A stretch of 64,000 nucleotides of DNA from a virus: IMG/VR virus record IMGVR_UViG_3300046170_000299, one strand, 5' to 3'. How positions within the stretch are numbered: position 1 is the stretch's first letter; the number at the start of each line of letters is the position of its first letter. Shown here piece after piece: positions 31,362-55,386 of the stretch. Position numbers and translations under genes: made by a program. Under the pieces are notes generated by a model. It had not been told where the DNA came from, did no database searches, and saw only the letters and a list, made by a program, of their open reading frames with translations.

Positions 31362-31589
31362 ATGGACAGTATCGAACAGCATATCGAAAAGGACAAAGAG
31401 ATTCTTGAGAATCCTACTATTTCACCGCAACAACGTCGTCACATTGAAGGTGAACTGCATGAATTAGAAGAGTATGCAGAACATAATAAGAAAGATATTG
31501 AAGCAGGTGATCATCACGATCCTTCATATCTTGAACTTTATTGTGATCAAAACCCTTCTGAACCAGAATGTTTAGTATATGATGATTGA
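31362..31589 (+). CDS. cp12: Calvin-cycle inhibitor CP12
   Basis: C-terminal ELYCDQNPSEPECLVYDD; N-terminus ISPQQRRHIEGEL as in picocyanobacterial/phage CP12. Confidence 0.95.
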   Translation: MDSIEQHIEKDKEILENPTISPQQRRHIEGELHELEEYAEHNKKDIEAGDHHDPSYLELYCDQNPSEPECLVYDD

Positions 31590-38285: not shown

Positions 38286-38368
38286 GCGAGTATGGCGGAA
38301 TCGGTAGACGCATCAGACTTAAAATCTGCTGACCATTGGTCGTGGGAGTTCAAGTCTCCCTACTCGCA
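38286..38368 (+). tRNA. trnL: tRNA-Leu (anticodon TAA)
   Basis: GCGAGTA/TACTCGC acceptor stem, D-loop GGAATCGGTAGAC, loop CT-TAA-AA, long variable arm, GTTCAAG T-loop; CCA not encoded. Confidence 0.95.
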
Positions 38369-38403: not shown

Positions 38404-38664
38404 ATGAAGTATACCATTAGCAGAAAACATTGTTTTGTTGACAACGAACCTGTTTTAATGTATTATATTCAGGAGATACCATTTGCTTTTGATGTTCTAG
38501 AAAGAGAAGAGAAAGAAGACAAGTGGATCTTGTCTGAAGCAGCAATAAATCAAGAGTATACCTTAGAAGATATTTTTAAATTCTCTGATTATTTAATTGC
38601 TGAAGAATGCCATCCAGTTTTATTTGAATTAGATCTCGTTAATCCAGAGCTTATACCAGAATGA
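38404..38664 (+). CDS. conserved hypothetical protein
   Basis: 86-aa acidic ORF overlapping the cpeT start. Confidence 0.75.
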   Translation: MKYTISRKHCFVDNEPVLMYYIQEIPFAFDVLEREEKEDKWILSEAAINQEYTLEDIFKFSDYLIAEECHPVLFELDLVNPELIPE

Positions 38665-39176
38665 GTTTTATTGAATTATTGGTTGGGACATTTGCTAACA
38701 AACGTCAAGCACAATCCCATCCTACACGTTTTGCACACATTCGTGTTTCTCACCGTTTGATTGGAGAAAACCGTATCTACGGAGAACAAGCATACAACTA
38801 TCTACTCAATCGTCCATATCGTCAGTTTGTGATCGATGTGGTTCAGGTTGGAGAAGAGTATCATCTAAAGAATTATGAGATTGCAAATCCTCTACAGTTT
38901 GCGGAGTGTAAAGGTCTCGAACAAATTACAGATGATATGTTGACATATCGTGAGGGTTGTGATATTATTATGAGACAGACAGGCACAGAATCTTACTTCG
39001 GTGGGACATCTACCTGCCACTGTAATGTCAATTGGAATGGTATTGATACTTTTGTCCAGAATGAGGTAAGACTCACTAAGGACGAATACCATGTAACTGA
39101 CAAAGGATTACATGTAGAAAACCATACTAAAGTATGGGGTTCTGATTACGGAGCATTTAAATTCGTAAGGCAGTGA
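38661..39176 (+). CDS. cpeT: T-type phycobiliprotein lyase
   Basis: GTFANKRQAQSHPTRFAHIR...YGEQAYNY....PYRQ...GCDI...DKG...VWGS.YGAFKF, the CpcT/CpeT signature. Confidence 0.9.
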   Translation: MSFIELLVGTFANKRQAQSHPTRFAHIRVSHRLIGENRIYGEQAYNYLLNRPYRQFVIDVVQVGEEYHLKNYEIANPLQFAECKGLEQITDDMLTYREGCDIIMRQTGTESYFGGTSTCHCNVNWNGIDTFVQNEVRLTKDEYHVTDKGLHVENHTKVWGSDYGAFKFVRQ

Positions 39177-39183
39177 TGCCGTC

Positions 39184-39255
39184 GCCTGATTAGCTCAGTG
39201 GTAGAGCAACGCTTTTGTAAAGCGTAGGTCGTCAGTTCAAATCTGACATTAGGCT
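39184..39255 (+). tRNA. trnT: tRNA-Thr (anticodon TGT)
   Basis: GCCTGAT/ATTAGGC acceptor, AGCTCAGTGGTAGAGC D-arm, ACGCT-TT-TGT-AA-AGCGT, GTTCAAAT T-loop. Confidence 0.95.
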
Positions 39256-39277
39256 TTAGAGATTGATCATCTCTATA

Positions 39278-39443
39278 GGGAGTGACTGAATAAACTTACT
39301 GGCAACCGCTGGTTAAGGTGATGAGACACAGGTGGTGCTGCTATCTTAGGATATGAATCGATTTACCAATCGGGTCTCAGGCAAAGATGAATTACTCTGT
39401 AGTAATGCCCGTCTTTTGTTGGTACACAGGAATCCAACCTCCC
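39278..39443 (+). ncRNA. manA-like structured RNA
   Basis: GGGAG/CTCCC closing stem; internal GAGAC/GTCTC, CGAT/ATCG, AAAGATG/CGTCTTT and TTGG/CCAA helices; follows a tRNA. Sequence resembles the manA motif as recalled. Confidence 0.65.
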
Positions 39444-39535
39444 ACCCTTTTTATTTGAATAATCGGTAGCTTTACGGCAGAGCTAGCATCTTGCAAACAT
39501 AACCGTACCCATTGTAATCTTGCACAAAAAATCAA

Positions 39536-40525
39536 ATGCTAAAATATCAAAAACTTATTCCAGGTCAATTACCAGATGTATCTTGGTATGACCAACTTGA
39601 ACTACCTGAAGGAAAATCTTATCGGGTTACAGAGAGAGCTTGTCTCCCTATTGATGAAGTAATCAATACAAACTCATCAAACGAAGTTAACAATGAAGTT
39701 CGTTCAGTTGGAACTGACAACGTTAACAAAGAATTAATTAAGAACAATATTCTTGTCAATGGTGTGTTGGTCAGTGTACAACCTCCATATGTTTACGAGA
39801 GCAAACTTTTTGATGGGTTTACTCGTTATGACTCTTACATAGAACTTGGCGTTACTCATGTAGTCTTCAATATTCTTGAGTTGAAGAAAGGTTTTACTGA
39901 GCAACAAATGCGTGATGAGATTGGTCTAGGTGCCAATAATCATCCACCATCAAAGAGTGCCACAGTCAACGACTTTAAGAAGCGTTTGAACGGACACATT
40001 GATCATTTCAAGGTTGAGCATGAGATCCTTCCTTCTACTGGTCACTGCATTGATTGGGTTAATGATATCCCTCATTCATTCGCACCAAAGCAAGTAGTTG
40101 ACATTGTAGATGTATGCCTTAAGCAGCATCGTTGTTCTGCTAGTGTTCTTGCTATGGACTCTAACAAGACAAACCAGTGGTCAGCAAAATACTGCCCTAA
40201 TGATATGAAAATCATTCCTCTTAACGTTTCTTCTCAGAAGGGTGGTGGTGTAAAAGGAACCTACTTTGATCGTGCTTTTATCAGTGCATTTTATAGGGCA
40301 GGAGAACTATCCTTCCTTGGATACACTCAAGGTATTGAAGCGGAAGAGTTAGATCACTATCGTCAGAAGGCACAAGAAAAAATTGATGCCGCCAACGAAG
40401 CTTTTGAAAAAGCATTTCAGAAGCGTCTAGAAGAAGGAAAGAACTTCAAGATGTTTAAACTTGAAGGATTCGTTCCTCAGATTATGGGTGAAGAAGATCA
40501 CACCACTCTGATTGAAACTAACTAA
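39536..40525 (+). CDS. uncharacterised 329-aa protein with possible ParB/Srx-like N-terminal domain
   Basis: I..NG.L...PPYV....LFDGFTRY..Y..LG pattern. Confidence 0.8.
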   Translation: MLKYQKLIPGQLPDVSWYDQLELPEGKSYRVTERACLPIDEVINTNSSNEVNNEVRSVGTDNVNKELIKNNILVNGVLVSVQPPYVYESKLFDGFTRYDSYIELGVTHVVFNILELKKGFTEQQMRDEIGLGANNHPPSKSATVNDFKKRLNGHIDHFKVEHEILPSTGHCIDWVNDIPHSFAPKQVVDIVDVCLKQHRCSASVLAMDSNKTNQWSAKYCPNDMKIIPLNVSSQKGGGVKGTYFDRAFISAFYRAGELSFLGYTQGIEAEELDHYRQKAQEKIDAANEAFEKAFQKRLEEGKNFKMFKLEGFVPQIMGEEDHTTLIETN

Positions 40526-40531
40526 TAATTC

Positions 40532-40556
40532 AAGGGGGGCATACGCCCCCTTTTTT
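40532..40556 (+). terminator. rho-independent terminator
   Basis: AAGGGGGGC-ATAC-GCCCCCTT plus T run. Confidence 0.8.
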
Positions 40557-40621
40557 AATATGGTCACTATAAAAGAACAATTACATTATATCTACATATG
40601 TTTTAGAGAAGTGTTTTTGAT

Positions 40622-40972
40622 ATGCCTTACAAAGATAAAGAAGAAAATCGTAAGTACCAGCGCGAGTGGGCGAAAAAGAATTCAAAGACTATTAAATCAA
40701 ATCAAATTGGTTCTCAGAGGAGAAAGCAGATAGTAGAGGATGCAAAGAAGCATTCATGTATCATTTGCAATAAAGACTTTCATCCTGTACAAATGGATCT
40801 TATTCATGTAGATCCATCACCAAAAAAACATAGTGTATCGAAATTATTACAGATAGCTAGTTACAAGACATTACAAGAAGAGATTGATAAGTGTGCCCCA
40901 ATATGTGCAAACTGTAATAGACTACTACAGAATGGTCATGTAGATCTACCAGAACTCATTGTCATGCCATAA
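40622..40972 (+). CDS. HNH-like zinc-binding endonuclease (catalytic residues degenerate)
   Basis: CIIC...DLIHVDP..K...EEIDKCAPICANCNR. Confidence 0.75.
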   Translation: MPYKDKEENRKYQREWAKKNSKTIKSNQIGSQRRKQIVEDAKKHSCIICNKDFHPVQMDLIHVDPSPKKHSVSKLLQIASYKTLQEEIDKCAPICANCNRLLQNGHVDLPELIVMP

Positions 40973-41032
40973 GGTTCAAATCTCACTACTTCTAAATTTT
41001 AGAACCCACCAGTATTTTCAGTCTTCTACTGG

Positions 41033-41040
41033 TATAAATA
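41033..41040 (+). promoter_or_regulatory. late promoter TATAAATA for the giant virion-protein operon
   Basis: Perfect consensus 40 nt upstream of ATG 41080. Confidence 0.85.
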
Positions 41041-41079
41041 AACCCGAGGACAAAGTATCACCGCAGGGTCAGAGTAATC

Positions 41080-44000
41080 ATGCCATTAACACGTTTAGAT
41101 AACCTTATTAGTTCCAAGACTGGTAAGTATCTTTATGTTTCGCCAGACGATTTTAACGCAACGGATGCGTTATCTAACCGAGGCAATTCACCAGTAACAC
41201 CTTTTAAGAGTATTCAGAGAGCATTCTTAGAGATTGCTAGATATTCTTATCTACCTGGTTTCCAGAACGATAGGTTCGACCAGTTCAGCATTATGCTGAT
41301 GCCTGGTATTCACTATATTGATAACCGTCCTGGTCTTGTTGACACCAGCGGTATTGATGTATTTGGATTTGATCAAGCTACTAATGCTTGGACTGATGAT
41401 AGCATCCTAGACATCTCTAACCCAGATAACGTCTTCTATAAATTTAACAACACTGAGGGTGGTGCAATCATCCCTAGAGGTTCTTCACTCGTAGGTTATG
41501 ACCTAAGAAGAACTGTTGTTCGTCCAATGTACGTTCCCGACCCTGCAACAACGGAACGTGAAATTCCTCGCTCTGCAATCTTTAACGTAACTGGTGGTTG
41601 TTACTTCTGGCAGTTCACTATTAAGGATGGACAAACTACATCTGAATCTCCTCTCTACGATAACTCTGAAGGAAGTGGTTTAGTCTATTATGATCCTAAA
41701 GATTTCGCAAAAAAATCCGCACCAAATTTTTCTCACCATAAGCTAACTGTATTTGAATATGCTGATACAGAAGAGTTAAGTCTTTTCTATAGAAAAATTG
41801 CAAAAGGTTTCTCTGCATATCAACCTACAATTGATGATCCTGGTGAATTTGATTTCAGGGTTCAAGAGAACAGAATTGTTGGTCCTTTATCTGACTCTAG
41901 AGTTATTGAGTCTTTAACTCTTGCAGATGCTACAACTGATCCTAGTATTCCTGCATCCACTGCAGAAATTACAGTAACAACTAAAGTTGATCATGGATAT
42001 TTTGCTGGTCAGTTTGTTGCTATTGCTAATACAGAAATTGATGATGTATTAGAAGGTATCTTCCAGATCAAAGAGATTGATCAGAATGATGCTCGTAAAT
42101 TTAAGTATGAAGTTCCATTCGTTGTAAGTGGAATTGGTAGTAATATTGTATCTGGTCAGACAGTTAGTGTTGACACTACTCCTGCACTAGGACAGAATGC
42201 ACAAACATTAGCAGAGGTTGACTCTGTTGAATCTGCATCACCATATGTCTTTAACGTATCGATTAGATCTACGTGGGGTATTTGTGGTATCTGGGCGAAT
42301 GGTCTTAAGGCAACAGGCTTTAAGTCGATGGTTATCGCTCAGTACACGGGCGTATCGTTACAGAAGGATGACAGAGCATTCATTCGTTATGATGAATATA
42401 CTAACACATGGAACCAAGCATCACTAGTAGATGCATTTGCTACTGTTCCTTATCACACCAAGGGTGATAGCTATTGGAAGGATGAGTGGAGAAACTTCCA
42501 CGTTCGTGCTTCGGATGATGCTTTCATTCAGAACGTTTCTATCTTCGCTGTTGGTTTCGCTGATCACTTCCTCATGGAAAGTGGTGGTGACATGTCTATC
42601 ACCAACTCGAACTCTAACTTTGGTAATACATCTCTACATGCTATTGGTTTTAAAGGTTTCGCCTTTAACCAAGATAAGGGTGGTTTCATTACTGACATCA
42701 TTCCACCTGAAGCAGTTGTTGACAATACTGCCAGCACTAAAAAGATTTCATATTATACTATTGATATTCAGGGGACATTACAAACTTCCTCAAATTATAC
42801 CAAACTATTCCTTGGTAATGATGACATCGTAGATCCTCTGGTAAGACCAGCTGCGACTATCACTGGTTATAGACTTGGTGCTAAGTCTAATGATAGACTA
42901 TATGTCAAGTTAGATAATGCTCCTGGCACAGATGAATTCTTTAATGTACAACTAGAACCAACTGGTTTTGTTAAGTATGTTGCTAAGGGTTCTATTCTTA
43001 ATCCTTCTGGTGGTGTAGTTAATAGTGTCTATGCAGATGCTGCTAACCTAATTGAATCTAACCGCCGTATGATTCAGGAGGAAGTCTTTGGATATATCCT
43101 AGAGAAGTATCCTAGACTCCAGAATATTCCTTATGTTAATCCTGGTCTAAATCCTGCAGGTAACAGATACTTTGATGCTCGTAATTTAATTGCTGCTAAC
43201 CGTCAAGAGATTGTTGATACAGCATTCGATGATATGATCACAACCTATGGATCTAGTGTGATCCAAGGTATTGGTGATGGTAAGTGTAAGAGAGATATTG
43301 GTCTGATTGTTGATGCTGTTGCAGAAGATCTTAAGGACGGTGGTAACTCTAACGTTATTGCTGCAACCAGAACTTACTTTGATGGTGATGGCAATCCACT
43401 AACTAATGGTTTAGTTGGTGAGGAAGACTATGCAACCTATGCATTCCGTAGAGCTCGTGATTTATGTAAACTTGCTATTGCTAACCTACTAACTGTACAG
43501 GCAGATCTATATGATCCTGATCCTAACAGTAATCTTGCTCCTTATGGTATCAATGTCGGTAAGACAGGTTCTCAGGCAGAACTAGATGGTGATACAACTA
43601 ACGGTGTAACGATTGACCTTGCACTTAAGGCAGATCCTGCATCCCGTTATAAGGACGCACGTAACAGAATTGTCGCCAATAGAGAGTTCATCCTAGATGC
43701 AGCACTTGCTGAGGTAAGTGTATATCATCCTGACTTCTACATTCCTGGCGACACACAAACCAATTCACAGTCTAGACTTGCTGATGGATTTAGAATGATC
43801 CGTCGTAACTCTTCTGAGATTAGAGATAAGGCACTTGCAGCTATTGCTGTTGCTCATCCTAACTTCTATATTGATGGTGATAATCAGACTGATGAAGGAT
43901 CTAGATATGCATCTGCATATCGTTTGATTGCAAACAATAGAAACCAGATTATTGATGTTGCATTGGCAGAAACAACTGTACAACATCCAGACTATTACTT

Positions 44001-47000
44001 TGTTGGTGATCAACAGACTGATGCACGTTCAAGATATGCTGATGGTTATCGTTTAATCCAGCAAAACAAAACTGAGATTGTCAACACTGCATGGACAAAT
44101 ACACTAGGACAGTATGCAGGCGCTGCAGCTACTGAAGTTAAGTGTAAGCGTGACATGGGAATCTTCGTTGATTCTGTATCTCTTGACCTCTTCGTTGGTG
44201 GTAACAAGTACGCACGTAAGTTTATTCAAGAATACTTCAATGCTGCTGGTAATGCTTGGATCTCTGGTGGTCTACAGGGTGAAGAGACTGAAAGTATCTA
44301 CGCATTCAACCAAGCAAGAGATTTAATGAAATCTGCTGTAGCTAACCAGTTGAGTGTTCAGGATCTTAGTGTTACACCAGGTCCTGCACAATATGCTGGT
44401 GGTGGCGGAGATATTGCTAACACTAACGCTGGTGCATGTGATGATGTACAATCTGCAATCACAACTCTAGTTGATATTGTTACGACACAGATTGCTGCTG
44501 GTAATCTCAATGCTTTACCTGCTGAGACAGCATACATCGCAGGTCCTGGCGAAGAGAAATGCCGTAGAGATATTGGTATCTTTGTTGATAGTATCGCACT
44601 TGACTTGTTCTGTAAGGGTAATGTTTACACTCACAGATTTGGAGCAGAGTTCTTTACAGATGCTTCAACTCCTGAGTTCTCATTCAACTCAGCGGTATAC
44701 AATACCAACTTCAATAAAGCTGCTGAGACGATCAAGAAAGCGATCACTAATCAACTTTACGAGAAAGATCTATTCAGAACAGCAGACAATGCACCTGGCT
44801 CAGCATATGGTCAGGTATCTAAGGATTACACACCACATGGTGCAACTTATGATGCAGCAACTGGTGATATGGTTCTCAGTATCGCTAACCATGGTTTAAG
44901 TAATGGCGATCGTGTTAAGATTGCAGATTCTGGAGTTGTATTTACATGCACTATGGATAGCAATGGTAGTAACCATGCATATCCACGTAATACAGACCCT
45001 GCATCTGGTCAGTACCTTGAGATTACTGCATCTACAACAGATAGTATCACAGTTAATGTTGGTGCATCTCCTGCTGGACAGCAATACGATCATACATTTG
45101 TAAGTGCTGTTGCTAATTGTGTAAACTTTGCTGGTAACACTGCTAATCAACTAATCGACGCTCAGACTGCTCTATGCTCTGACGTTCAATCTGCTGTTGA
45201 CTCACTAACAAGTATTGTAACTACAATTCTTTCTAATGGCAACCTCAGCACCATGCCTATTGAGGTTAACTATGGTAGTGGTAGAGGTCCTGGCGAACTT
45301 AAGTGTGCTCGTGACATCGGTTACTTTATCGATGCTATCTCCGTTGATATGTTCTGTGAAGGTAATAAGCATACTAGAACATTCACTGAGCAATACTTCA
45401 CTAATGCTACTACACCTCTAAACAACGGTCTTGTTGGTGAAGAAGCAGAAAGTGTTACTGCTTTCAACACTGCTCTTAATGAAATGAAGAGAGCAGTTAC
45501 CAACCAACTATACTATAAAGATCTCACTGTCACTGAGGGTGAAAGTCAATGGGGAGATGGCAATGGCACTGTTGCTAGAAATTCTTCTACTGCATGTGCT
45601 GATGTTCAGAATGCTATCACTACACTAGGAACTATTGCTACTGATGCAATCACTGCTGGTAATATTACTGGTGGTATCTGGAACTCTGCTGCTAACGCTG
45701 GAACGTTCATTACTGGCGAAGCTAAGTGTCGTAGAGACCTTGGCATCGTTGTTGATGCTGTTGCACAGGATCTCTGGTTTGGTGGTAACGAGTTTACTAT
45801 CGCTGCAACTAAGGAATACTTTAATAACAATGCATTAATTGCTAACGGTGTTGATGCTGAAGTTGCACCTTCTATCACTGCATTCAAGCGTGCTGAAGAT
45901 TTAATGCAGCGTGCATTAAACAACGTTTACTATGATCGTGACCTTAATATTACACTAGATCAGACGGGTGATCCACCAATTGTAGGTGACATCGAGTGTG
46001 ATGCACATGACATGGTAACCTCTAACCTAGACTTCATTGCAGAAGAAGCATATCTTCGTATGATTGCTGCATATCCTGCTTACACACCACAGGCAAACAA
46101 TACTGCACAAGATTGTAAGGATGATGTTATTACTGTCCTTAAAGAAGTCATGTGGGACGTTAAGTTTGGTGGCAACTACAAGACATATGATGCTGCTAAG
46201 ATCTATGTCACCAACTACGACTATCAAACTGGCACTAACATCTCTACTTTCCTTGATGCTGAGCGTGATGAAGCTGCTAAGGTAATGCTTGAGGCGAAGA
46301 ACATCGCCATGCAGGTTATCAAGAATGAAACTGTAACTGTTGATGCTGCTAACACCAAGACTCAGGTCATTGATAATACTATCGTAGAAGACTGGGATGC
46401 AACTGAACTACTACCTAAGTGTGGTTCTGCTGTAGCTGCTGTTGATACTTTGTTTGGTATCGTTATTCAAGCGATTGGTAATGATGGTGGCGTAGGTAAT
46501 CTTGATGGTGTAGTTAGAACTACTCTTGATGGTCCTGATCCTGCATGGAACAAGGCACTCAATGTTATCAGCACTACTGCTACTTCCGTTACACTTAACG
46601 TTGGTGCATCTGCATCTGGTGATCAATATCCACATACATTTATCGCAGCAGCTGCTGGTGCTTTAGTATCTGGTGGTGCTTATGCTCATACATTTGTAAG
46701 TGCATCTGCTGGTGCAGTTAACGTCGTTAACGGTTCTCAGATTACACCAACCAATGCAACATACGATGCTGCAACTGGTGATCTAACTCTATACTTTGGA
46801 TCTGCACACGGTGTAACTACTAGTGATCAACTATCTATTGATGATAACTCACTCACATTCTCTTGTGATATGGGTAGAGATTCAACAACTAAGACTTATC
46901 CTCGTGCTGGATCTGATCCTGTTGCTGGTCAGAATGTCAACCCAACTGCTGTAACTGCAACCTCTATTACAATTAATGTTGGTGCATCTCCTCTAGTTGA

Positions 47001-50000
47001 GCATAACGTATCTAACGCAGTATATGATTCTGCAACTGGTTCTATTGCTCTTACGATTGGTGCTCACACACTAACCTCTGGTACTAGCGTCAAACTTAAG
47101 GAAGAATCTTTAATCTTCAAGTGTACTAAGGATCAGAATGTTATGACACATTCCTATCCTAGAGCATCTGGTAAGTACAGACCTGCTGCATATGCAGATG
47201 GCAACTGTTCTGATGTTCTTGCAACTGTTAACGCACTGATTGACATCACATGTAACTCTCTTAACGATGGTAACCTCAACAACTTACCACCTCTAAACAA
47301 TGGTGAGTGGGATTGTGCAAACGTTCGTAGTTCTATCGAAGTTCTCTTTGATATTCTACAGGATGCAATCGTTGGTGGTACACTTGCTGGTCTACCTCCT
47401 CTTAACACTGGAGACTTCACAATCAATAACGAAGCATCTAAGTGCTTCCGTGATGTTACTTACATCGTTGATGCTGTTGTTAATGACTTACGACTTGGTG
47501 GTAACCTCAACAGTATCCAAGCTGGTGAAGCATACTATGTTGGTAACAACCTAGAGTACATCGACGGTGAGAAGACTGAAACTCTAGATGCATGGAACTA
47601 TGTCGGACAGATGGCAACTGCTGCCATGAGAAACTTCGATGTTCTTGCATTCAACTGTTCTACAACTACTGGTTCTGCAATCGTTGACGTTAACGATACT
47701 CGTGGCATCATTATTGGTATGGGTGTCAAGGAATACGATGACACTGATCCAACTGCACCAGCATATGTCAATGGATTGCTACAAAGTGGAGCAACTCAAC
47801 TAGTATCTAATATCCCTGCTGGTACATATGTCAAGAACATTGTAAGTAATACACAAATTGAACTTGGTGTTAATGGTTCTAGACTAACTGAAGGTAACAC
47901 AGTCAACGCCTTACAGACTAGCACTACAACTGAACTATACTTTGTATATGAAAATGGTATTTGGGCAGATACATTACCCACAACTAAGATTGTCGGTCCT
48001 GCAGGAACTGGTGAAGAGGTCATTCAAGACACCACAGTTTCTCCAACAAATAGAGAGTGTTCTGGTACTGCTAATGCTATTGAAACGTTAGTTGGTAACA
48101 TCACTACTATTATTAATAGTGGTCTTGGCACAGTTACTAGACAAGAGCAGACAGTTAACACTGCACTTCTTGCATCTAGAGCTACAGTATTTACGATTGA
48201 CGTTTCTGGTAGTGGTCCTTCTAACCCACATGACTTTGAAACTGGTACAGCAGTTAGATTGGTTCCACGTCCACGTTTCGATCAAGTAACTGGTAAGTAT
48301 GTTGATGTTGATAAGCGTCTTGTTAGACTACCTAATGGTTTTGATACTAACAGAACATACTATGTCATTGCACCAGGTAGAGTAACACAACCAGAGAACT
48401 ACGGTGGTACATCATTCTTCGATGGTAGTGATCAAACTAGATTGATGCTTGCAACCTCTAGAGAGAACGCAGCATCTGGTATTTACATCTATGCATCTGA
48501 AACAGATAGCATCGATAAGGATGTTGAGATTGATCTCTATCAGTTTGTTCTTGACGACAAGTATGATCTACACAATTATACTGGTGTATTAAGCACATCA
48601 GTTAACGCTGGTATTCAAACAGATGTATCTCACATCTTTGATGTTCCTAATGCTGGTACTACACCTCAGAAAGCATTCATCAGAGCTGTTGAAGGTGGTG
48701 TTCTACCTCTAATCTCACAGACCTATGTTAATGATCCTCAAGTTGCGGTAACTGATCCGCAGAACTCTGCTATCGGTAGAATCAATCCTAACATTGAGTT
48801 CTTCACTCGTTATCAGAATAATAAGACACTTACATTACACAAGACACATGCTGATGCAATTAACAATGTAAATCCAATTACATTTGCAGCTGGTCAATCT
48901 GGTCTTGAGTTCAATGTTTATGCTAACAAGAGTCGTTCGCCAATGCGATTCGATCCTGGTTTCACTGATGCTACTGCAACCAATGGTAAGTGGTACATCC
49001 AGTGTAAGGACGAGGTAACTGGTAGTGGTGATCCTACAGATAATATCTTCTGGAGAATTTCTCAATCTGATTACGCTGATAGACAGAGATCCACTGACAT
49101 GTGGTATGAGCGTCTAGAAGATAATCGTGATAAGGATGATAGAACATACAAACTACGTATGGTCATTCCTAAGTATCTTGAGAATGCAAGAGATCCTATT
49201 AATGGATTTGTTCTTAAGACAAGAACTGATGACACACGTAAGTTAGTACCTCAGAAGGTTGTATTGAAACCAGTTGTTGGTACAGTATATGGTGCTCGTT
49301 TTGAAAACCCAGTACAAGCTGGTGAATATATTGGATATGATTCTGCTGATTTCAATACTAATAGTCTTAATTTAGATGCACAGTATGATCCATTTAAAAA
49401 GGATCAAACAGGTGCAGGTATTGAGTATAGAGCATTTGCAAGATTCACATCTGGTATTCAGGCAACTATCCAATCTGGTCGTTATGTAGAAGACGTTTTA
49501 GATCCTTCTATCAAGTATCTTGAGTTGAATCTATATGATCATGCTGTTGATACTAGAAACTTCCCTGGCTTGAGGAACGAGACATTTACTACAGTTAAGA
49601 TTACTGCTCCTCAAGGTGGTAACTTTGTAACTAGTAAGGTTGATAACCAAGCATCATCTCCTAACGCTATTAGTTTTGCTGGTAATTCTTCTGGTTTAGC
49701 TAACGTTCATGCATATTATACAGTAAATGGTGAACATTACTTAATCATCAAGAACGTTCGTAGTGGTGATTTAGAGTATAGTGAATATGCCAATACAAGA
49801 TTCACTCAAGGCACTGTCTTTGCTGACATGCTTGAGGATCAGGACATGGGCAAATCGCTTCCTCTAAAAACTCAAATCAGAAAAAATAATCCCCAGTTTT
49901 TCTACAAGCAAAACGGCGCTAACGTTTACACTATCACACCTGGCGACAGAATTCAAGATGACGCTGGTGTTGAGTACTATGTTGATAGCGTTGAAGATGC

Positions 50001-53000
50001 AGGAGTTATCGAAGATACATTCTATATCTTCGGATATGAAACTCTACAAAAGAGAATTTCTGGACAGCAAGATGGTATCTACTATCTAACTGCCCTCCGT
50101 GGTAACGTTTCACCATTCCCAACTGGTGCTGGTGTAACTAACAACTTCAAGAAGTTTAAGTTCTCTCAACCAGTCAGTAAGCTATATCCTCTTAACTATA
50201 GAAACGATCCTCTTTGGTTTAAGAAGTCTGGTACTTCACAAGAAGAAAAAGATCTATATGCTGCATTAATTGACCCACCACAGGTATACTCTGCTGCTGA
50301 CAACTATGTACATGGTCTTGTCACAGTTAACGACTTTAAGAACTCTACAACCAGAGAGATGGTTGCAGACCTTACAGAACAACCTGCATTCTTGCTTAAC
50401 ACCTATACTGGTGGCAATACAATTCAAGCACAAAGTGGTAATGCAACTTCTGGTTCTGAAGATCGTAGGATTCCGATTTCTGGTGATAGCACAGTTCTCT
50501 CTGATCAGAGATATTATGTTGAACTTAGACGACCATCTATCGCTCGTGCTGGTAACCATACGTTTGAATATCTTGGTTTCGGTCCAGGCAACTACTCCAC
50601 TGGTCTACCAGCTAGGCAGGAAGTCGTCCTAACACCTGAAGAGGACTTCTACGCACAAAGTAAGAAACAAGACGCTGGTATTGTCTTCTACACTGGTATT
50701 AACTCACAGGGTGATTTGTACATTGGTAACAGAAGAATCAATGCTATTACTGGTGAAGAGACATTCATCGATTCTGCTGCATTAGTAGATGATGGAGACG
50801 AGGATGATACATTAGGCGGTCTAGTTACTACCTTCGATACTCCTGTAACATTCAACCAGAATATTACAGTTGTTGGTGGTGATGGTGAACTAGTTAATAC
50901 ATTTGAATCACCAATTACTATCGCTGTTCAAGATTCTGATCTAACACAGTCAAGAGATGCATTAATCATTCGTTCTAACGTATCTTCTATTGATCCTGTA
51001 ACACAACTAGAACAAGATGAGCAATTAGATAGAACTGCATTTGCTCCTCCTACTGATGGTGACATCAGACTTGGTAAAAACAGAATTCAATCCGCTATTT
51101 TTGGATTTAATTCCAGAGGAAATGGTCAAGAATATAAGATTCAAACACATACTACAGGCGGTGTAGCTTCTAACGTTACTCCTAATCAGTCTCCACTGAT
51201 CGCTAATGGTGGATCTAGAATTGATGTATCTCAGTTTATCACTTATGGTGGTGTAATCGCCGCACCTGGCGATATGCTACTCAAGGGAGCTGAAGTTGGT
51301 AAAAACGGATCTATCGCATGGATTCTTTCTAACTACTTCTCTAATATTTCTAATAATCAGATTGATAACATCGAGTTTGATGGAACCAATGTTGTTAAAC
51401 TCTCATTCAGAGACTTTACCAGTGGTGTTGCACTCTCAGTTGGTAATGATATTGGCATCACATCTGGTTCTCAGATTAGAATTAAGAACTTCTACTATGA
51501 TCCTAGACTAAACCTAACATGGCAGGTATACGCTGCTAAACCTGGTGATGCATTTAACCCAACAAATAACTACTGTCATTTCCAAGTTATTGATCAAATT
51601 CCACAAGATACACAAGCTTGGGAAAACATTATTGCTGGTACAGCTACTGGACAACCTAGTCCTACTATTGAATTCTCTAACTCTAACTTCAAGGAATTTG
51701 GAGTCATTGGTGCTGAAGCACTTAGAACAGAGACTGAGAGCATTGGTGAGTATAAGTTAGGCATCAACACTGTTGCTCGTGCTCCACATAGTGCATATGC
51801 AAATGCATGGGTAAATCCAACAACGACTGATCCTCGTGCAAACCTTGATGTTGTTGGTAACGCATTCATCAGTGGTAGAGTTACAGGTGATTTCTTAGAT
51901 CATACTAACTTCGCTGATCGTGATAAGACTGCAATCGACAATGCACTATTAATTGGTGGTGATAGTTCTGCTCCTAACGATGAGGCAGTCCTACGTGTTG
52001 CGACTACAAACGGTGGTCGTGTTGGTATTAATGTTGATAACTCTCAACTAGATAGAGCTCTGGTTGTAGATGGCACATCTAGATTCACTGATGATGCTCG
52101 TTTTGAGCATGACATTGAAGTCAATGGTGATGATGGTGTAATTGCCGAGATCAGAACATCACAGACAACAGGTACATTTAACTTAGTTGATGATACCACA
52201 TTTACTGGAACACTCAACATTGGTAGTCAGGTTGGCACATTCAACCTAGTCAATGATACTACTGATGATCAGTTTATCTACGTTGGTACTTCATCAACAC
52301 ACAGTAATATCTTCATCGGAACTACTTCTGATACACCTAGTTCTAATATTTCTAAGGTTGAAATTGGTGGTGGATATAACAATAACGAGTCTCTATCCTT
52401 TACTAGAATCAAAACCAAGTCCTTCAAGGTTGATGGTGACTTCCAGCTAGGTGCGAGAAGAACAATTAATGATACTGTAAACCTAACCACTAGTGCAGGT
52501 AAAGTTTCATTCTTCTCTAACTCTGGTTCTGCTTCTATTCTTGATTTCGCACTTAATGCATCTGAAATCAACATTGCTGGTCAGGGTGGTCTAACCACAA
52601 TTAACAACCAGTTGAGAGTTGTTGCTTCTGCACAGTTTGATGGAAACATCCTAATGTGTGGTGGTGTTGCGGCATTCTCCTTCTTAGGTGACAGGGCACA
52701 ACTTGGATCCACTGCATTCGCTCATGCTGATGGTATTCTAAGTGATACATTATTCAATAAGAACATTGACATTCTTAATGTCTTAGTTCTACAGACAACT
52801 GATGAAGGTTACAACCAAGTTGATACTGCTGGTGCTGGTCTCTGGGGTGGTGCTGCTTATCAACAGGAAGTTACAAACATTGGTGGAGCACCAGCTGTTG
52901 AACCACAGACATTGGGTGTTCTAACTGGTGATGAATACTGGTTACCACTCAAGTTTGCACCTGTTAAGCAAAATGGTGATCCATACTTTGTTGAGAATGA

Positions 53001-55386
53001 TTATATTATTATCAACAGTGCAGTTTCTGGTAGCGGACATCCTGAGATCGTTCAGGTTCTAGAATTAACTAGAACATCTGTTGCTCCTTACTACCTCAAG
53101 GTTAAGCGTCAACCACTTGGTACTTACACTGCAATTCTAAACAATCATATTGATACTACACCTATTTTCAAGGTTAACGTACAGTTTGATGCCACATGGA
53201 CTGAGCAGGCACTAGATTCTACTGGTCCTCAAGACAATGTATATCTTTCTGAGTTTGGTGGTGTTCTAACAAATAATGATTATGTAATCATTGACCGTGA
53301 AGATACAAACAGCGATGGCATCTTTAATCAAGGTGAAGTTATCAAGGTTGTTACTCCTCTAGAGGCAGTAGAACAGAAATTCAGAATTTCTAAAGATTGT
53401 TCTCAAGGTGAAGCTGGCGATGTGTTCATTGTCAACTCTGTAACAGGTGACACTACTATCCTTGGCGATACTACTATCAATAACACTCTGACAATTAAGG
53501 GTGGTTGTGGAACACTATCCAATGTTCAGTTTAATGGAACTGCAACTGCTGGAACTAATATTATTACTGGTGTAACTGTTACGAGTCCTGATAAGACAAT
53601 TGCTGATATCAAGATTGGTGATACCATTGTTAATATTACTAACGAGTCTCCAATTAACTTCTCGCCAGATGCAGTCATTACAGCAATTGATTCAGTCAAT
53701 GGTGAGTTAGTTCTAAGCAGAAACACACTTGGTTCTTCTTCCCAGACTGTAGGATTAGCAGCTAGGAGAAATGAGCAATTCTTGATCACAGATGGTAATC
53801 AAGTACCAACATTCAGGGTAGATTCTTGTAGTGGAACTACACATATTGGTAATCAATATGGTAGATTCGATATTGAATACTCCAGTGCTGGAGAGACTAC
53901 TTCTAATACTGCTGGTATTCCTGCACTATTTGATGCTGGAACTATCAAGAGAGCATATAGTTTCTGGTTCGATCCACAGCATGTATCTGATGGTGGTCCT
54001 ACTACTACAATCGCTAGTGCTGTTGCTGGTAGCGCAAGTCAAATCCAGATTCCTGTTCAATCTCTTGGTGTTGGTTCTGGTGCGTTTGCTGTTGATGATT
54101 TAGTATTTGTTGGATCACCAACTGCAACAACTACTCAAATTGGTGATTATATTATTGGTAAGATTACACAAATTATTACCAACCCTGCTAACTTAACTAT
54201 TGTTGTTGAAGATGCTGGTACTGGTTTAAATACCAACAAGACATTTACTCCATCTGATAGTGCATTTGATGCTGGTAATACTGTTAGAAGACTAATCAAG
54301 CATAAGGAACTTGCTAATATCATCGATGTTGAGCAGAGAACTAGAGTTAACTCTGGTGCTTCTACCACATATATCTCGATGATCCTTGATAAAGGATATA
54401 TCTCTCAGCAAAAACTTGATTACGCTCAATTCTTAGCTCTTGCAGATGACGAAGGTGATGCTAAGATTTGGGTCAAGGTTGTTGGAAGACTGAAAGGTGA
54501 TGTTCATCAAGTAACGATGAACGAACAAATTCAAGATGGTGCAATTGGATATAGAAGTGGTAACACTCTCATCAATGGCAACTTGGATATGGCTGGTGGA
54601 AGCTTCCAGATCTTCGATTCTGTTAATCAGACAAGACTGTTTGCTTTAGTTAATGATGATGGTCACGCTGATCACCAAGGTCTACTAACTTGGGATGCTG
54701 GTGTTACTGCAAGAGGTGACTTCTATCTCTTCAGCGCACAAGATCCAGAGAACGTTGTTTTAAATCCAGATGCTAATGTTCCATCATTCTCTGTTGATAA
54801 CCTGGCTAATGTAACTGCTGGTAGGTCGTTTACTGTTAATGGTCTGGCATCTAATCCACCTTCTACAACATTCAAGCAATTTGCTTTAGAAAATCTTGGT
54901 GTAGATGGCACAGAAGAGTATGCAATTAAGCAAGATAGTTCTATCGATGCATTTGGTATTACTAACTTCACTACTTCTAGTGGTGCTAGACATACAAGAT
55001 ATATTTCTTCTGCATCTCCAGAAGAGGATCTAACATTAGTACCAAATATTACTTATATGGTAAATACTACTGCTTCAACTACATTAGTTCTTACATTACC
55101 ATCTGGTCCTCAATCAGGAGATATTGTGAGAATCACAGATGTTGGTGGTAACTTAAGCTATAATACATCATTGGTACTAAGAACAGCAGAATCTTCTGGA
55201 ACTAAGATTCAGGGAGATGATACTGGAACACTGTTGGGTGGAAGAATTACACCATATCCTTCTGGAGAACTGGTAGTTCAAACTCCTAATGCTGCGTTTG
55301 CTCTTGTATATCTTGGTTCTGTTGATAGTAATGGACAAGTTGGTATTCCAACTTCAGTACAAGGATGGTGGTTAACCGAGGTATAA
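41080..55386 (+). CDS. giant (4768 aa) virion/tail structural protein: N-terminal beta-helix-like region, central phycobiliprotein-like repeats, C-terminal fibre-type domains
   Basis: Uninterrupted 14.3-kb ORF behind a late promoter; YVSPDD..ATD...G.SP..PFKSIQRA beta-helix entry; C-terminal LVLTLPSGPQSGDIVRITD fibre motif. Confidence 0.92.
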   Translation: MPLTRLDNLISSKTGKYLYVSPDDFNATDALSNRGNSPVTPFKSIQRAFLEIARYSYLPGFQNDRFDQFSIMLMPGIHYIDNRPGLVDTSGIDVFGFDQATNAWTDDSILDISNPDNVFYKFNNTEGGAIIPRGSSLVGYDLRRTVVRPMYVPDPATTEREIPRSAIFNVTGGCYFWQFTIKDGQTTSESPLYDNSEGSGLVYYDPKDFAKKSAPNFSHHKLTVFEYADTEELSLFYRKIAKGFSAYQPTIDDPGEFDFRVQENRIVGPLSDSRVIESLTLADATTDPSIPASTAEITVTTKVDHGYFAGQFVAIANTEIDDVLEGIFQIKEIDQNDARKFKYEVPFVVSGIGSNIVSGQTVSVDTTPALGQNAQTLAEVDSVESASPYVFNVSIRSTWGICGIWANGLKATGFKSMVIAQYTGVSLQKDDRAFIRYDEYTNTWNQASLVDAFATVPYHTKGDSYWKDEWRNFHVRASDDAFIQNVSIFAVGFADHFLMESGGDMSITNSNSNFGNTSLHAIGFKGFAFNQDKGGFITDIIPPEAVVDNTASTKKISYYTIDIQGTLQTSSNYTKLFLGNDDIVDPLVRPAATITGYRLGAKSNDRLYVKLDNAPGTDEFFNVQLEPTGFVKYVAKGSILNPSGGVVNSVYADAANLIESNRRMIQEEVFGYILEKYPRLQNIPYVNPGLNPAGNRYFDARNLIAANRQEIVDTAFDDMITTYGSSVIQGIGDGKCKRDIGLIVDAVAEDLKDGGNSNVIAATRTYFDGDGNPLTNGLVGEEDYATYAFRRARDLCKLAIANLLTVQADLYDPDPNSNLAPYGINVGKTGSQAELDGDTTNGVTIDLALKADPASRYKDARNRIVANREFILDAALAEVSVYHPDFYIPGDTQTNSQSRLADGFRMIRRNSSEIRDKALAAIAVAHPNFYIDGDNQTDEGSRYASAYRLIANNRNQIIDVALAETTVQHPDYYFVGDQQTDARSRYADGYRLIQQNKTEIVNTAWTNTLGQYAGAAATEVKCKRDMGIFVDSVSLDLFVGGNKYARKFIQEYFNAAGNAWISGGLQGEETESIYAFNQARDLMKSAVANQLSVQDLSVTPGPAQYAGGGGDIANTNAGACDDVQSAITTLVDIVTTQIAAGNLNALPAETAYIAGPGEEKCRRDIGIFVDSIALDLFCKGNVYTHRFGAEFFTDASTPEFSFNSAVYNTNFNKAAETIKKAITNQLYEKDLFRTADNAPGSAYGQVSKDYTPHGATYDAATGDMVLSIANHGLSNGDRVKIADSGVVFTCTMDSNGSNHAYPRNTDPASGQYLEITASTTDSITVNVGASPAGQQYDHTFVSAVANCVNFAGNTANQLIDAQTALCSDVQSAVDSLTSIVTTILSNGNLSTMPIEVNYGSGRGPGELKCARDIGYFIDAISVDMFCEGNKHTRTFTEQYFTNATTPLNNGLVGEEAESVTAFNTALNEMKRAVTNQLYYKDLTVTEGESQWGDGNGTVARNSSTACADVQNAITTLGTIATDAITAGNITGGIWNSAANAGTFITGEAKCRRDLGIVVDAVAQDLWFGGNEFTIAATKEYFNNNALIANGVDAEVAPSITAFKRAEDLMQRALNNVYYDRDLNITLDQTGDPPIVGDIECDAHDMVTSNLDFIAEEAYLRMIAAYPAYTPQANNTAQDCKDDVITVLKEVMWDVKFGGNYKTYDAAKIYVTNYDYQTGTNISTFLDAERDEAAKVMLEAKNIAMQVIKNETVTVDAANTKTQVIDNTIVEDWDATELLPKCGSAVAAVDTLFGIVIQAIGNDGGVGNLDGVVRTTLDGPDPAWNKALNVISTTATSVTLNVGASASGDQYPHTFIAAAAGALVSGGAYAHTFVSASAGAVNVVNGSQITPTNATYDAATGDLTLYFGSAHGVTTSDQLSIDDNSLTFSCDMGRDSTTKTYPRAGSDPVAGQNVNPTAVTATSITINVGASPLVEHNVSNAVYDSATGSIALTIGAHTLTSGTSVKLKEESLIFKCTKDQNVMTHSYPRASGKYRPAAYADGNCSDVLATVNALIDITCNSLNDGNLNNLPPLNNGEWDCANVRSSIEVLFDILQDAIVGGTLAGLPPLNTGDFTINNEASKCFRDVTYIVDAVVNDLRLGGNLNSIQAGEAYYVGNNLEYIDGEKTETLDAWNYVGQMATAAMRNFDVLAFNCSTTTGSAIVDVNDTRGIIIGMGVKEYDDTDPTAPAYVNGLLQSGATQLVSNIPAGTYVKNIVSNTQIELGVNGSRLTEGNTVNALQTSTTTELYFVYENGIWADTLPTTKIVGPAGTGEEVIQDTTVSPTNRECSGTANAIETLVGNITTIINSGLGTVTRQEQTVNTALLASRATVFTIDVSGSGPSNPHDFETGTAVRLVPRPRFDQVTGKYVDVDKRLVRLPNGFDTNRTYYVIAPGRVTQPENYGGTSFFDGSDQTRLMLATSRENAASGIYIYASETDSIDKDVEIDLYQFVLDDKYDLHNYTGVLSTSVNAGIQTDVSHIFDVPNAGTTPQKAFIRAVEGGVLPLISQTYVNDPQVAVTDPQNSAIGRINPNIEFFTRYQNNKTLTLHKTHADAINNVNPITFAAGQSGLEFNVYANKSRSPMRFDPGFTDATATNGKWYIQCKDEVTGSGDPTDNIFWRISQSDYADRQRSTDMWYERLEDNRDKDDRTYKLRMVIPKYLENARDPINGFVLKTRTDDTRKLVPQKVVLKPVVGTVYGARFENPVQAGEYIGYDSADFNTNSLNLDAQYDPFKKDQTGAGIEYRAFARFTSGIQATIQSGRYVEDVLDPSIKYLELNLYDHAVDTRNFPGLRNETFTTVKITAPQGGNFVTSKVDNQASSPNAISFAGNSSGLANVHAYYTVNGEHYLIIKNVRSGDLEYSEYANTRFTQGTVFADMLEDQDMGKSLPLKTQIRKNNPQFFYKQNGANVYTITPGDRIQDDAGVEYYVDSVEDAGVIEDTFYIFGYETLQKRISGQQDGIYYLTALRGNVSPFPTGAGVTNNFKKFKFSQPVSKLYPLNYRNDPLWFKKSGTSQEEKDLYAALIDPPQVYSAADNYVHGLVTVNDFKNSTTREMVADLTEQPAFLLNTYTGGNTIQAQSGNATSGSEDRRIPISGDSTVLSDQRYYVELRRPSIARAGNHTFEYLGFGPGNYSTGLPARQEVVLTPEEDFYAQSKKQDAGIVFYTGINSQGDLYIGNRRINAITGEETFIDSAALVDDGDEDDTLGGLVTTFDTPVTFNQNITVVGGDGELVNTFESPITIAVQDSDLTQSRDALIIRSNVSSIDPVTQLEQDEQLDRTAFAPPTDGDIRLGKNRIQSAIFGFNSRGNGQEYKIQTHTTGGVASNVTPNQSPLIANGGSRIDVSQFITYGGVIAAPGDMLLKGAEVGKNGSIAWILSNYFSNISNNQIDNIEFDGTNVVKLSFRDFTSGVALSVGNDIGITSGSQIRIKNFYYDPRLNLTWQVYAAKPGDAFNPTNNYCHFQVIDQIPQDTQAWENIIAGTATGQPSPTIEFSNSNFKEFGVIGAEALRTETESIGEYKLGINTVARAPHSAYANAWVNPTTTDPRANLDVVGNAFISGRVTGDFLDHTNFADRDKTAIDNALLIGGDSSAPNDEAVLRVATTNGGRVGINVDNSQLDRALVVDGTSRFTDDARFEHDIEVNGDDGVIAEIRTSQTTGTFNLVDDTTFTGTLNIGSQVGTFNLVNDTTDDQFIYVGTSSTHSNIFIGTTSDTPSSNISKVEIGGGYNNNESLSFTRIKTKSFKVDGDFQLGARRTINDTVNLTTSAGKVSFFSNSGSASILDFALNASEINIAGQGGLTTINNQLRVVASAQFDGNILMCGGVAAFSFLGDRAQLGSTAFAHADGILSDTLFNKNIDILNVLVLQTTDEGYNQVDTAGAGLWGGAAYQQEVTNIGGAPAVEPQTLGVLTGDEYWLPLKFAPVKQNGDPYFVENDYIIINSAVSGSGHPEIVQVLELTRTSVAPYYLKVKRQPLGTYTAILNNHIDTTPIFKVNVQFDATWTEQALDSTGPQDNVYLSEFGGVLTNNDYVIIDREDTNSDGIFNQGEVIKVVTPLEAVEQKFRISKDCSQGEAGDVFIVNSVTGDTTILGDTTINNTLTIKGGCGTLSNVQFNGTATAGTNIITGVTVTSPDKTIADIKIGDTIVNITNESPINFSPDAVITAIDSVNGELVLSRNTLGSSSQTVGLAARRNEQFLITDGNQVPTFRVDSCSGTTHIGNQYGRFDIEYSSAGETTSNTAGIPALFDAGTIKRAYSFWFDPQHVSDGGPTTTIASAVAGSASQIQIPVQSLGVGSGAFAVDDLVFVGSPTATTTQIGDYIIGKITQIITNPANLTIVVEDAGTGLNTNKTFTPSDSAFDAGNTVRRLIKHKELANIIDVEQRTRVNSGASTTYISMILDKGYISQQKLDYAQFLALADDEGDAKIWVKVVGRLKGDVHQVTMNEQIQDGAIGYRSGNTLINGNLDMAGGSFQIFDSVNQTRLFALVNDDGHADHQGLLTWDAGVTARGDFYLFSAQDPENVVLNPDANVPSFSVDNLANVTAGRSFTVNGLASNPPSTTFKQFALENLGVDGTEEYAIKQDSSIDAFGITNFTTSSGARHTRYISSASPEEDLTLVPNITYMVNTTASTTLVLTLPSGPQSGDIVRITDVGGNLSYNTSLVLRTAESSGTKIQGDDTGTLLGGRITPYPSGELVVQTPNAAFALVYLGSVDSNGQVGIPTSVQGWWLTEV
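43021..48130 (+). repeat. about 7 helical protein repeats with C-x-R/K-D...GGN and a second C-x11-D motif
   Basis: First-type Cys codons at 43285, 44143, 44560, 45304, 45727, 46114, 47443; second-type at 44437, 45175, 45595, 46420, 47206, 47314, 48058. Confidence 0.85.

Follow-up and report, generated by a model that had tools for sequence, protein, structure and literature searches.

Possible bilin-attachment cysteines on phycobiliprotein-like domains of a giant cyanophage virion protein

The window, a stretch of 64,000 nucleotides from a marine cyanophage (IMG/VR record IMGVR_UViG_3300046170_000299), was found to encode a giant virion protein with seven biliprotein-like domains in its middle part, as seen in Table 1. 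Profile homology together with an AF2 fold match supports the repeats being phycobiliprotein-like. The helices that carry a second cysteine may be the helix-H-like end of a truncated phycobiliprotein-derived domain, with both cysteines serving as bilin sites and CpeT as a plausible, though not a necessary, loader. We hold this reading tentatively and put it a little below an even chance. The giant ORF matches PHROG 4527 (4617 bits) as well as PHROGs 529, 5342 and 701, and its annotated orthologues are found in S-WAM2, S-RSM4 and ACG-2014e. Twenty-four of the 32 cysteines in the protein fall within aa 736-2327. The repeats of the window share 16-45% pairwise identity, and their length of ~135 aa leaves space for one helix between cores. 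Further conserved cysteines were seen near the array, in the motif D-L-F-C-x-G-N and in beta inserts.

Table 1. Features of the cpeT region and of the giant virion gene, in window coordinates
Feature	Position	Strand	Remarks
tRNA-Leu	38286-38368		ARAGORN
Putative sigma-70-like promoter match	38438-38466		before cpeT; consensus match only
cpeT, T-type phycobilin lyase homologue, 171 aa	38661..39176	+	Pfam PF06206; PHROG 488
tRNA-Thr	39184..39255	+	between cpeT and giant gene; ARAGORN
Intrinsic-terminator-like hairpin	40532..40553	+	9-bp stem with 6 GC pairs and a T run; downstream of ORF 39536-40525
TATAAATA, T4-type late-promoter consensus	41033..41040	+	40 nt before giant gene ATG
Giant ORF, 4768 aa	41080..55386	+	cyanomyovirus 'short tail fiber' / virion structural protein
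Domain 1, aa 724-830	43249..43569	+	K-C-K-R-D at Cys736; no Cys helix after
Domain 2, aa 1010-1145	44107..44514	+	Cys1022 on helix E; Cys1120 on closing helix (44434-44481)
Domain 3, core aa 1149-1250	44524..45219	+	Cys1161; beta-rich insert, then Cys helix 1366 (45172-45219)
Domain 4, aa 1397-1531	45268..45672	+	Cys1409; second Cys1506 (45592-45639); unit chosen for AF2 model
Domain 5, aa 1538-1665	45691..46074	+	Cys1550; divergent closing helix with Cys1640
Domain 6, aa 1667-1806	46078..46497	+	D-C-K-D-D at Cys1679; second Cys1781 (46417-46464)
Two tandem Cys helices	47200..47358	+	Cys2043 and Cys2079; preceding domain 7
Domain 7, core aa 2110-2210	47407..48102	+	Cys2122; insert, then Cys helix 2327 (48055-48102)

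The homology of the repeats to phycobiliproteins was seen at the profile level. A repeat profile searched against the PDB with hmmsearch gave an E-value of 0.003 when built from 7 rows and 5e-5 when built from 51 rows, and all 60 of the 60 PDB matches listed were phycobiliproteins, with K-C-x-R-D-I-G of the repeats aligned on alpha-Cys84. An hhalign comparison with 10 real phycobiliproteins returned a probability of 90.7% (E 1.2e-6). These matches were confined to helices B/E or E. With the Pfam Phycobilisome family (PF00502), the whole giant protein had no match at E 0.1 and did not reach the gathering score; one of the seven single repeats matched at E 0.14, below the threshold. A feature search of a protein atlas gave GH53-type clusters at 0.89, which is under the meaningful level. 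The K-C-x-R-D core on helix E was well kept: of 51 units, 50 have the cysteine, 50 the aspartate and 41 the arginine, and all seven window copies have both the cysteine and the aspartate. Some copies in Prochlorococcus phages have lost the C-x-R-D motif.

The AF2 model of domain 4 had a pLDDT of 77, with about 90 for the closing helix and the core versus about 70 for the leading helix. In VIA-align, model residues 44-168 superposed on residues 74-177 of a phycobiliprotein beta subunit, i.e. helices E-H (103 residues, rmsd 2.4 A), with a Z of 10.0, a value that, by the tool's own caveat, helical models can reach through common packing. Of the elements of the complete fold, the X-Y hairpin and helices A and B were not superposed. 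Among 48,161 chains searched without a filter, four reached Z 8 or more, three of the phycobiliprotein family and one non-haem globin. Foldseek of the model against the PDB found no match at E <=0.001; its best E was 0.5, and its rows were mostly phycobiliprotein beta chains. When a two-domain model was searched after a Foldseek prefilter, in which the phycobiliproteins were lost, only ApcE stood out (Z 6.6). In both AF2 models, the Cys helix closes the domain before it, packing as its last helix; in the two-domain model, that domain is the first of the two. The models support a helix H position for the Cys helix that follows each K-C-x-R-D core. The superposition on a beta subunit that had been suggested in the preliminary description succeeded for helices E-H at the level of aligned ranges.

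The preliminary description had reported seven helices with a second cysteine, and all were recovered in the translation of 41080-55386 (aa 1120, 1366, 1506, 1781, 2043, 2079 and 2327), its numbers being off by no more than 1-2 residues. A further copy, the eighth, is divergent and lies at Cys1640. The consensus of the Cys helix, C-x-[DN]-V-x-[ST]-A-I-D-T-L, recurs in homologues of many cyanomyoviruses and, therefore, the helix is a conserved element rather than a chance occurrence. The second cysteine is present in 33 of 51 units and in 40 of 77 in a larger domain set; where it is absent, Tyr, His, Thr or Val stands in its place. An obligatory disulfide between both cysteines of a domain was set aside, since 50 of 51 units retain the helix-E cysteine with or without the second one.

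The same description had equated the second cysteine with the beta-155 site. In the domain 4 model, the closing helix spans residues 150-169 with Cys149, giant aa 1506, at its N-cap. The last residue of phycobiliprotein beta chains (172, 177 and 184 aa) falls on model residue 168, which puts Cys149 19 residues before the fold end; the same distance to the C-terminus is found for C153 of 172 in CpcB, C159 of 178 in MpeB and C165 of 184 in CpeB. This mapping is arithmetic from ranges aligned on AF2 models. The order of core and Cys helix fits it: in phage B23, all five K-C-x-R-D cores are followed by a Cys helix 87-99 aa on, and the array ends in both B23 and the window agree with this phasing. 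The place of the cysteine on helix H and the 19-residue offset were thus upheld in the models, but not a match to helix H in sequence. Profiles phased from helix E to H did not detect a helix-H similarity and matched at helix E alone, and sequence profiles put the Cys-helix type on phycobiliprotein helix B. The beta-subunit motif given in the preliminary description is real, as G-D-C-S-A-L-V-A-E-A-G-A-Y-F-D with its Asp at +12 was found in CpcB, CpeB and MpeB of a Synechococcus genome. The claim of an Asp 12 residues after the cysteine in three window copies was also exact (1120, 2043 and 2079). However, only 4 of 51 units have this Asp versus at least 90% of phycobiliproteins, so it was rejected as a signature common to both. 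The helix-H signature G-D-C-[SA]-x-L-x-x-E-x-[GA]-x-Y-F-D was not recovered in the phage repeats. In phycobiliproteins, beta-Asn35 and beta-Asp39 contribute to the beta-155 pocket along with alpha-subunit contacts (PMC6614406). The E-H domain as modelled has no helices A and B and would lack these residues and contacts; hhalign sets the conserved Asp two residues after the cysteine of the Cys helix on beta-Asp39.

The gene upstream was confirmed as a member of the CpeT family. Its product matched PF06206 over residues 3-170 of 171 (E 8.9e-37, 127 bits against a cut-off of 21), and its PDB matches included Nostoc CpcT (4O4O, E 2.5e-20) and a phage CpeT (5HI8, E 7e-14). It ends 1.9 kb before the start of the giant ORF, as had been stated, and overlaps a small ORF upstream by 4 nt. 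A search of genome contigs with CpeT found two loci only, both apparently phage DNA inside MAGs. Motifs of the TATAAATA type are established late promoters in T4-like phages, and the copy before the giant gene is probably used as such. From these elements, cpeT and the giant gene are predicted to be separate transcription units with their own promoters and a terminator between them.

Whether cpeT and the domain belong together was examined in 29 phage genomes. Both were present in 22, cpeT alone in none, the domain alone in three and neither in four (Fisher p 0.0015, and 0.006 when P-SSM2 and P-SSM5 are taken as a single genome; both values are uncorrected for phylogeny). The co-occurrence proposed earlier, therefore, holds for the domain (22 vs 0) but not for the second cysteine, which did not track cpeT among domain-bearing genomes (Fisher p = 1). 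It is kept in three phages without cpeT and absent from four with it. Thus the system is not 'self-contained', as the preliminary description had suggested. We consider it an even call whether the closeness of cpeT to the giant gene is plain synteny without a functional link, with cpeT sitting in a tRNA/metabolic island by the gp5 region and the fibre gene downstream by chance in this clade. In S-SM1, cpeT is found at 14.6 kb, flanked by cp12 and a tRNA and adjoining gp5, and the domain gene lies 40 kb away at 55.8-74.4 kb; S-RIM2, ACG-2014b, Syn19, P-RSM4 and P-HM1 share this layout. The terminator-like hairpin and the late-promoter motif that separate the two genes in the window, along with the lack of association with the second cysteine, also fit chance neighborhood. 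On the other hand, cpeT was never seen without the domain. P-HM1 also speaks for a link. It has cpeT and five domains, two with the second cysteine, yet the sole biliprotein of its host MED4 has Cys82 alone and no T-site. This mismatch calls for another lyase substrate and is circumstantial support for a link with CpeT.

Another possible explanation, which we regard as somewhat doubtful, is that the repeats are a phycobiliprotein-derived scaffold without pigment. They would form a rigid helical fibre module with structural or redox cysteines, in inter-chain disulfides or metal contacts, and cpeT would serve the host antenna only. This would account for the second cysteine being found in about half of the domains and swapped elsewhere for other residues, for its helices being kept in the three cpeT-less phages, and for the other conserved cysteines close by in D-L-F-C-x-G-N and the beta inserts. 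P-SSM4 also fits, as it kept cpeT and lost the helix-E cysteine, with three domains that have no cysteine at either site. In addition, we know of no report of a pigmented cyanophage particle. What an unpigmented scaffold does not readily explain is that the best conserved part of these divergent repeats is the bilin-contact motif, the Cys and Asp of helix E. Neither does it explain a helix-E cysteine without a constant cysteine partner. In phycobiliproteins, the helix-E and beta-155 sites are far apart, and by analogy the two sites should also sit far apart here if the fold is alike.

It is unlikely that the beta-155 equivalence is wrong and that each Cys helix is the homologue of helix B of the following domain, with its cysteine near beta-37 and the conserved Asp at +2 on beta-Asp39, where hhalign sets it. 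HMMER aligned profile positions 4-69 with residues 40-104 of C-phycocyanin alpha (accuracy 0.91), hhalign reached 62 columns with phage D-V-Q on beta L-D-A-V, and the E-to-H profile matched only at helix E, but the extra helix was worth just ~5-7 bits. The VIA ranges start at residue 41-46, so that the leading helix is not superposed on B while the closing helix is superposed on H, and the array ends in the window and B23 favor a core followed by its Cys helix. Both helix readings point to the beta-155 pocket, since beta-Asp39 hydrogen-bonds that bilin (PMC6614406).

Under the explanation that we prefer, a truncated phycobiliprotein-derived domain of ~100-135 aa (helices E, F, G and H) would be present in seven copies in a late-expressed, tail-fibre-like protein. 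Helix E of each domain carries the canonical bilin motif K-C-x-R-D, and in about half of the copies a second cysteine, predicted to cap the closing helix at its N-terminus, would occupy the structural place of beta-Cys153/155/165. Both cysteines may hold, through a thioether bond, a bilin synthesized in the infected cell, the second probably as an optional additional site. Loading of the second cysteine would fall most naturally to a T-type lyase; the phage CpeT may do this, and the host CpcT/CpeT could too. To our knowledge, 'boosting the host antenna' has been the sole reason given for the bilin-synthesis genes and T-type lyase of cyanophages. It is a poor fit for phages of Prochlorococcus MED4, where the one biliprotein lacks a T-site. 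Two bilin-type cysteines per domain offer a concrete alternative lyase substrate on a phage structural protein. Even if the repeats prove to be unpigmented, the reuse of host antenna proteins as fibre building blocks appears unreported in the literature searched.

A further step would make the giant fibre protein a virion-borne biliprotein, with bilins from phage and host enzymes on the helix-E cysteine and, loaded by CpeT, on the helix-H cysteine, that acts as a light sensor for light-dependent adsorption; we consider this very improbable. Light-dependent adsorption has been seen in several marine cyanomyoviruses (PMC2984593, PMC6628666), and the giant protein is a candidate photoreceptor for it. 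P-HM1 and P-HM2 do not adsorb in the dark and P-SSM2 does (PMC6628666). P-HM1 has five domains and cpeT versus neither in P-SSM2, which fits a light sensor.

Several known systems can be compared with this protein. The window CpeT is a full-length member of the CpcT/CpeT lyases (4O4O, 5HI8), whose known target is beta-Cys153/155/165 (PMC10452541). The known substrates of T-type lyases differ in being cellular beta subunits, and no phage-encoded substrate was described in the literature searched. In work by Gasper and colleagues from 2017, P-HM1 CpeT reportedly bound PEB tightly without transfer to host CpeB. Non-haem globin sensors, the RsbR N-terminal domain (3ZTA, Z 8.9) and pXO2-61 (3PMC, Z 6.7), were top-ranked or high structural matches and, therefore, the phage repeat fold is globin-like; unlike the repeats, they have no C-x-R-D motif, and no sequence similarity between the two was found. 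The beta subunits CpcB, CpeB and MpeB (PF00502) share with the phage domain the globin-like helices E-H, C-x-R-D on helix E and, in the models, a further cysteine that caps the N-terminus of the final helix, 19 residues from the fold end. In contrast, the phage domain has no X-Y hairpin, has no helices A/B in the model, falls below the Pfam threshold, has a G-H loop of ~30 aa and lacks the Y-F-D hallmark of helix H; it occurs as a tandem array in a 4768-aa virion protein, with the alpha-like flank K-C-x-R-D-I-G. ApcE matched both models in structure (4XXI, Z 8.0; 9WG7_N2, Z 6.6-6.9), and its bilin is attached at a non-canonical cysteine without a lyase. Like the phage protein, ApcE has a phycobiliprotein-type domain inside a large multidomain protein, but that domain is complete, single and part of an antenna protein, whereas the phage carries seven truncated copies in a virion protein.

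Self-comparison of the giant protein, which resembles a tail fibre, revealed seven copies of a helical unit roughly 135 aa long. Its invariant helix, K-C-x-R-D...D-L..G-G-N, has the core Cys at aa 736, 1022, 1161, 1409, 1550, 1679, and 2122. When a profile of these seven copies was searched against all PDB sequences, 47 of the 48 matches at E up to about 1 were phycobiliproteins (PBPs; best E 0.003), and K-C-x-R-D-I-G aligned with the alpha-84 bilin site. A 51-row profile, made after retrieving 52 related loci from IMG/VR, reached a best E of 5e-5, and among the matches listed 60/60 were PBPs. The phage domain did not reach the threshold of the Pfam PBP model; hhalign against the PBPs of one Synechococcus genome (CpcA/B, CpeA/B, MpeA/B, and Apc subunits) gave a probability of 90.7% and an E of 1.2e-6. 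The AF2 model of one extended unit (domain 4, aa 1397-1531) had a pLDDT of 77, with the core near 90. Foldseek by itself found no significant match for this model. Superposition on PBP beta chains, a check suggested in the preliminary description, gave Z 10.0, with 103 residues aligned at an rmsd of 2.4 A and model 44-168 lying on beta-chain 74-177. In a Foldseek-independent search of 48,161 representative chains, Z 8 was reached by four only: a non-haem globin, phycoerythrin beta, allophycocyanin, and the ApcE bilin domain. From the profile, hhalign, AF2, and structure-search matches, we therefore conclude that the unit is a PBP-type domain, diverged and truncated to helices E-H.

The preliminary description also placed a second Cys, in a helix closing each unit, at the beta-155 site, which belongs to the attachment site of T-type lyases (T-site, beta-Cys153/155/165). 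All seven of its Cys helices were found where it put them, lying between K-C-x-R-D cores; three further copies are isolated or behind beta-rich inserts. In the model, a helix at 150-169 after the core (pLDDT about 90) occupies the place of helix H, with Cys149 (giant-protein aa 1506) as its N-cap. For beta chains 172, 177, and 184 aa long, the structure aligner VIA paired their final residue with model residue 168. The T-site Cys of Synechococcus CpcB, MpeB, and CpeB is constantly 19 residues ahead of the C-terminus, the same offset as in the model (168 - 149 = 19), and this range arithmetic on predicted models supports the helix-H position. The Cys helix belongs to the first domain in a two-domain model, as in the single-unit model. 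Phage B23 has five cores, each with a Cys helix 87-99 aa on, and its series opens after the first core and closes after the last; the window array ends likewise. The AF2 models and the array ends thus agree with the earlier phasing, in which the Cys helix closes the preceding core.

Sequence profile methods detected no helix-H similarity for the Cys helix, and sequence methods put this helix type on PBP helix B, where its conserved Asp at +2 falls on beta-Asp39. Since beta-Asp39 hydrogen-bonds the beta-155 bilin (PMC6614406), both mappings point to the same pocket, although they are distinct homology statements. The Asp at +12 claimed for three window Cys helices is seen in the translated giant protein; this residue typifies helix H of PBPs, where it is at least 90% conserved, but it occurs in only 4/51 phage units. 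As far as the predictions allow, the unit is a PBP-type domain with its second Cys at the T-site position.

Of 51 diverse units, 50 carry the helix-E Cys, 50 its Asp, and 41 the Arg. The second Cys, in the leading-helix column, is found in 33/51; in the other units, an R-Y-x-D-A variant of the helix has Tyr, His, Glu, or Phe at this position. In 20 phages, a Cys helix lies within 75-125 aa after 40 of 77 cores. Some Prochlorococcus-phage copies lack the helix-E Cys, among them 3/3 domains of P-SSM4. That the bilin-contact motif is selectively conserved suggests that the phage domains may attach bilin.

Several other features were seen. P-SSM4 (NC_006884 69800-76400) has K-K-T-D-L in the orthologue of the R-C-K-T-D-L copy and retains a cpeT homologue despite the missing helix-E Cys in all three domains. 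A third Cys, two residues ahead of G-N in D-[LM]-F-C-x-G-N, occurs in two window copies (Table) and 9/51 units. The beta-rich inserts between helical domains, the portion of the region with the broadest matches among other cyanophages, share F-x-C-x(9-12)-[HT]-x-Y-P-R (Cys1290, 1929, 2015), which may bind metal or have a structural role. The tandem helix-loop units, with consensus S-R-Y-x-D-A-x-x-L-I-x-x-N...P-x-F-Y-x-x-G-D-x-Q-T, are related to the Cys helix; Tyr replaces Cys, Asp +2 is kept, and no E-F-G core is present.

Table. Features of the cpeT and giant-gene region of the window
Feature	Coordinates	Remarks
tRNA-Leu(TAA)	38286-38368	flanks cpeT, side away from giant ORF
cpeT	38661-39176	CpeT/CpcT lyase homologue, full length
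tRNA-Thr(TGT)	39184-39255	flanks cpeT, side toward giant ORF
ORF	39536-40525	between cpeT and giant ORF
Terminator-like hairpin, strong	40532-40553	between cpeT and giant ORF
Late-promoter motif TATAAATA	41033-41040	between cpeT and giant ORF
Giant ORF (+)	41080-55386	4768 aa; full-length match to cyanophage 'short tail fiber' / virion structural PHROGs
Helix-loop units	43640-44110	aa about 855-1010; 3-4 in tandem, ~45 aa each
Third Cys, Cys1178	44611-44613	
Third Cys, Cys1426	45355-45357	
Beta-rich insert	44826-45150	aa about 1250-1357
Beta-rich insert	46740-46900	aa about 1890-1940
Beta-rich insert	47000-47160	aa about 1975-2030

The source of the window is a T4-like cyanomyovirus that has S-WAM2 and S-RSM4 as relatives. 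A hairpin and a late-promoter motif separate cpeT from the giant gene, and the two are therefore adjoining but separate transcription units. Adjacency of cpeT and the domain gene is clade-specific: in S-SM1, cpeT (at 14.6 kb) adjoins gp5 and is flanked by cp12 and a tRNA, with the domain gene 40 kb away. The placement of cpeT amid tRNAs and metabolic genes is common to the window and S-SM1. S-PM2 (NC_006820; region 165600-171000) has nine domains split over two genes, one (166336-170280) beginning ~1.9 kb past cpeT (163961-164470) and the other at 55.5-57.9 kb.

Whole records of 27 isolate genomes and a 194-kb phage contig in a Synechococcus MAG were screened for PF06206, the CpeT/CpcT family, and for the domain profile. 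Counting the window, 22 of the 29 genomes have both cpeT and the domain, three have the domain without cpeT (B23, S-SSM6b, S-SKS1), four have neither (P-SSM2, P-SSM5, S-SSM7, S-CRM01), and none has cpeT alone. Fisher's test gave p = 0.0015, or 0.006 if P-SSM2 and P-SSM5 are taken as one, with kinship ignored. This association is no more than suggestive, because the sample was partly picked by giant-protein similarity and relatedness was uncorrected. The proposed co-occurrence of cpeT with Cys-bearing repeats is seen for the domain but not for the second Cys, which is kept in 8/10 domains of the three cpeT-less phages and absent in four cpeT-bearing phages.

The MAG contig (JBJBBP010000001.1, 193,981 bp) is an entire cyanomyovirus genome, a relative of the window, with a CpeT at 88% identity, a seven-domain giant ORF of 4904 aa, 11 domains across three genes, and two bilin-reductase genes at 30923-32151 but no haem oxygenase. 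A CpeT homologue with 57% identity to the window's was found on CAJXMP010000233.1 (4.4 kb, 'Lewinella' MAG). This contig is probably a piece of cyanophage DNA wrongly assigned to a Bacteroidota MAG.

A further reading, of low probability and from a comparison of very few phages, would tie the domains to light-dependent adsorption: P-HM1/2 fail to adsorb in the dark and P-SSM2 succeeds (PMC6628666), a split that follows presence and absence of the domain.

It can be hypothesized, as in the preliminary description, that phage CpeT acts on the giant-protein domains. The Cys-level pattern and the separate transcription argue against a dedicated CpeT-domain pair, while the genome-level co-occurrence and a paradox in P-HM1 and its host MED4 argue for such a role of CpeT. 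P-HM1 carries cpeT and five domains, two of them with the second Cys, and its CpeT reportedly failed to load PEB onto host CpeB. The sole biliprotein of MED4 has one site, Cys82 (bioRxiv 10.1101/2020.03.31.018853). A phage with cpeT and second-Cys domains, set against a host with Cys82 alone, favours action of CpeT on the phage's own protein.
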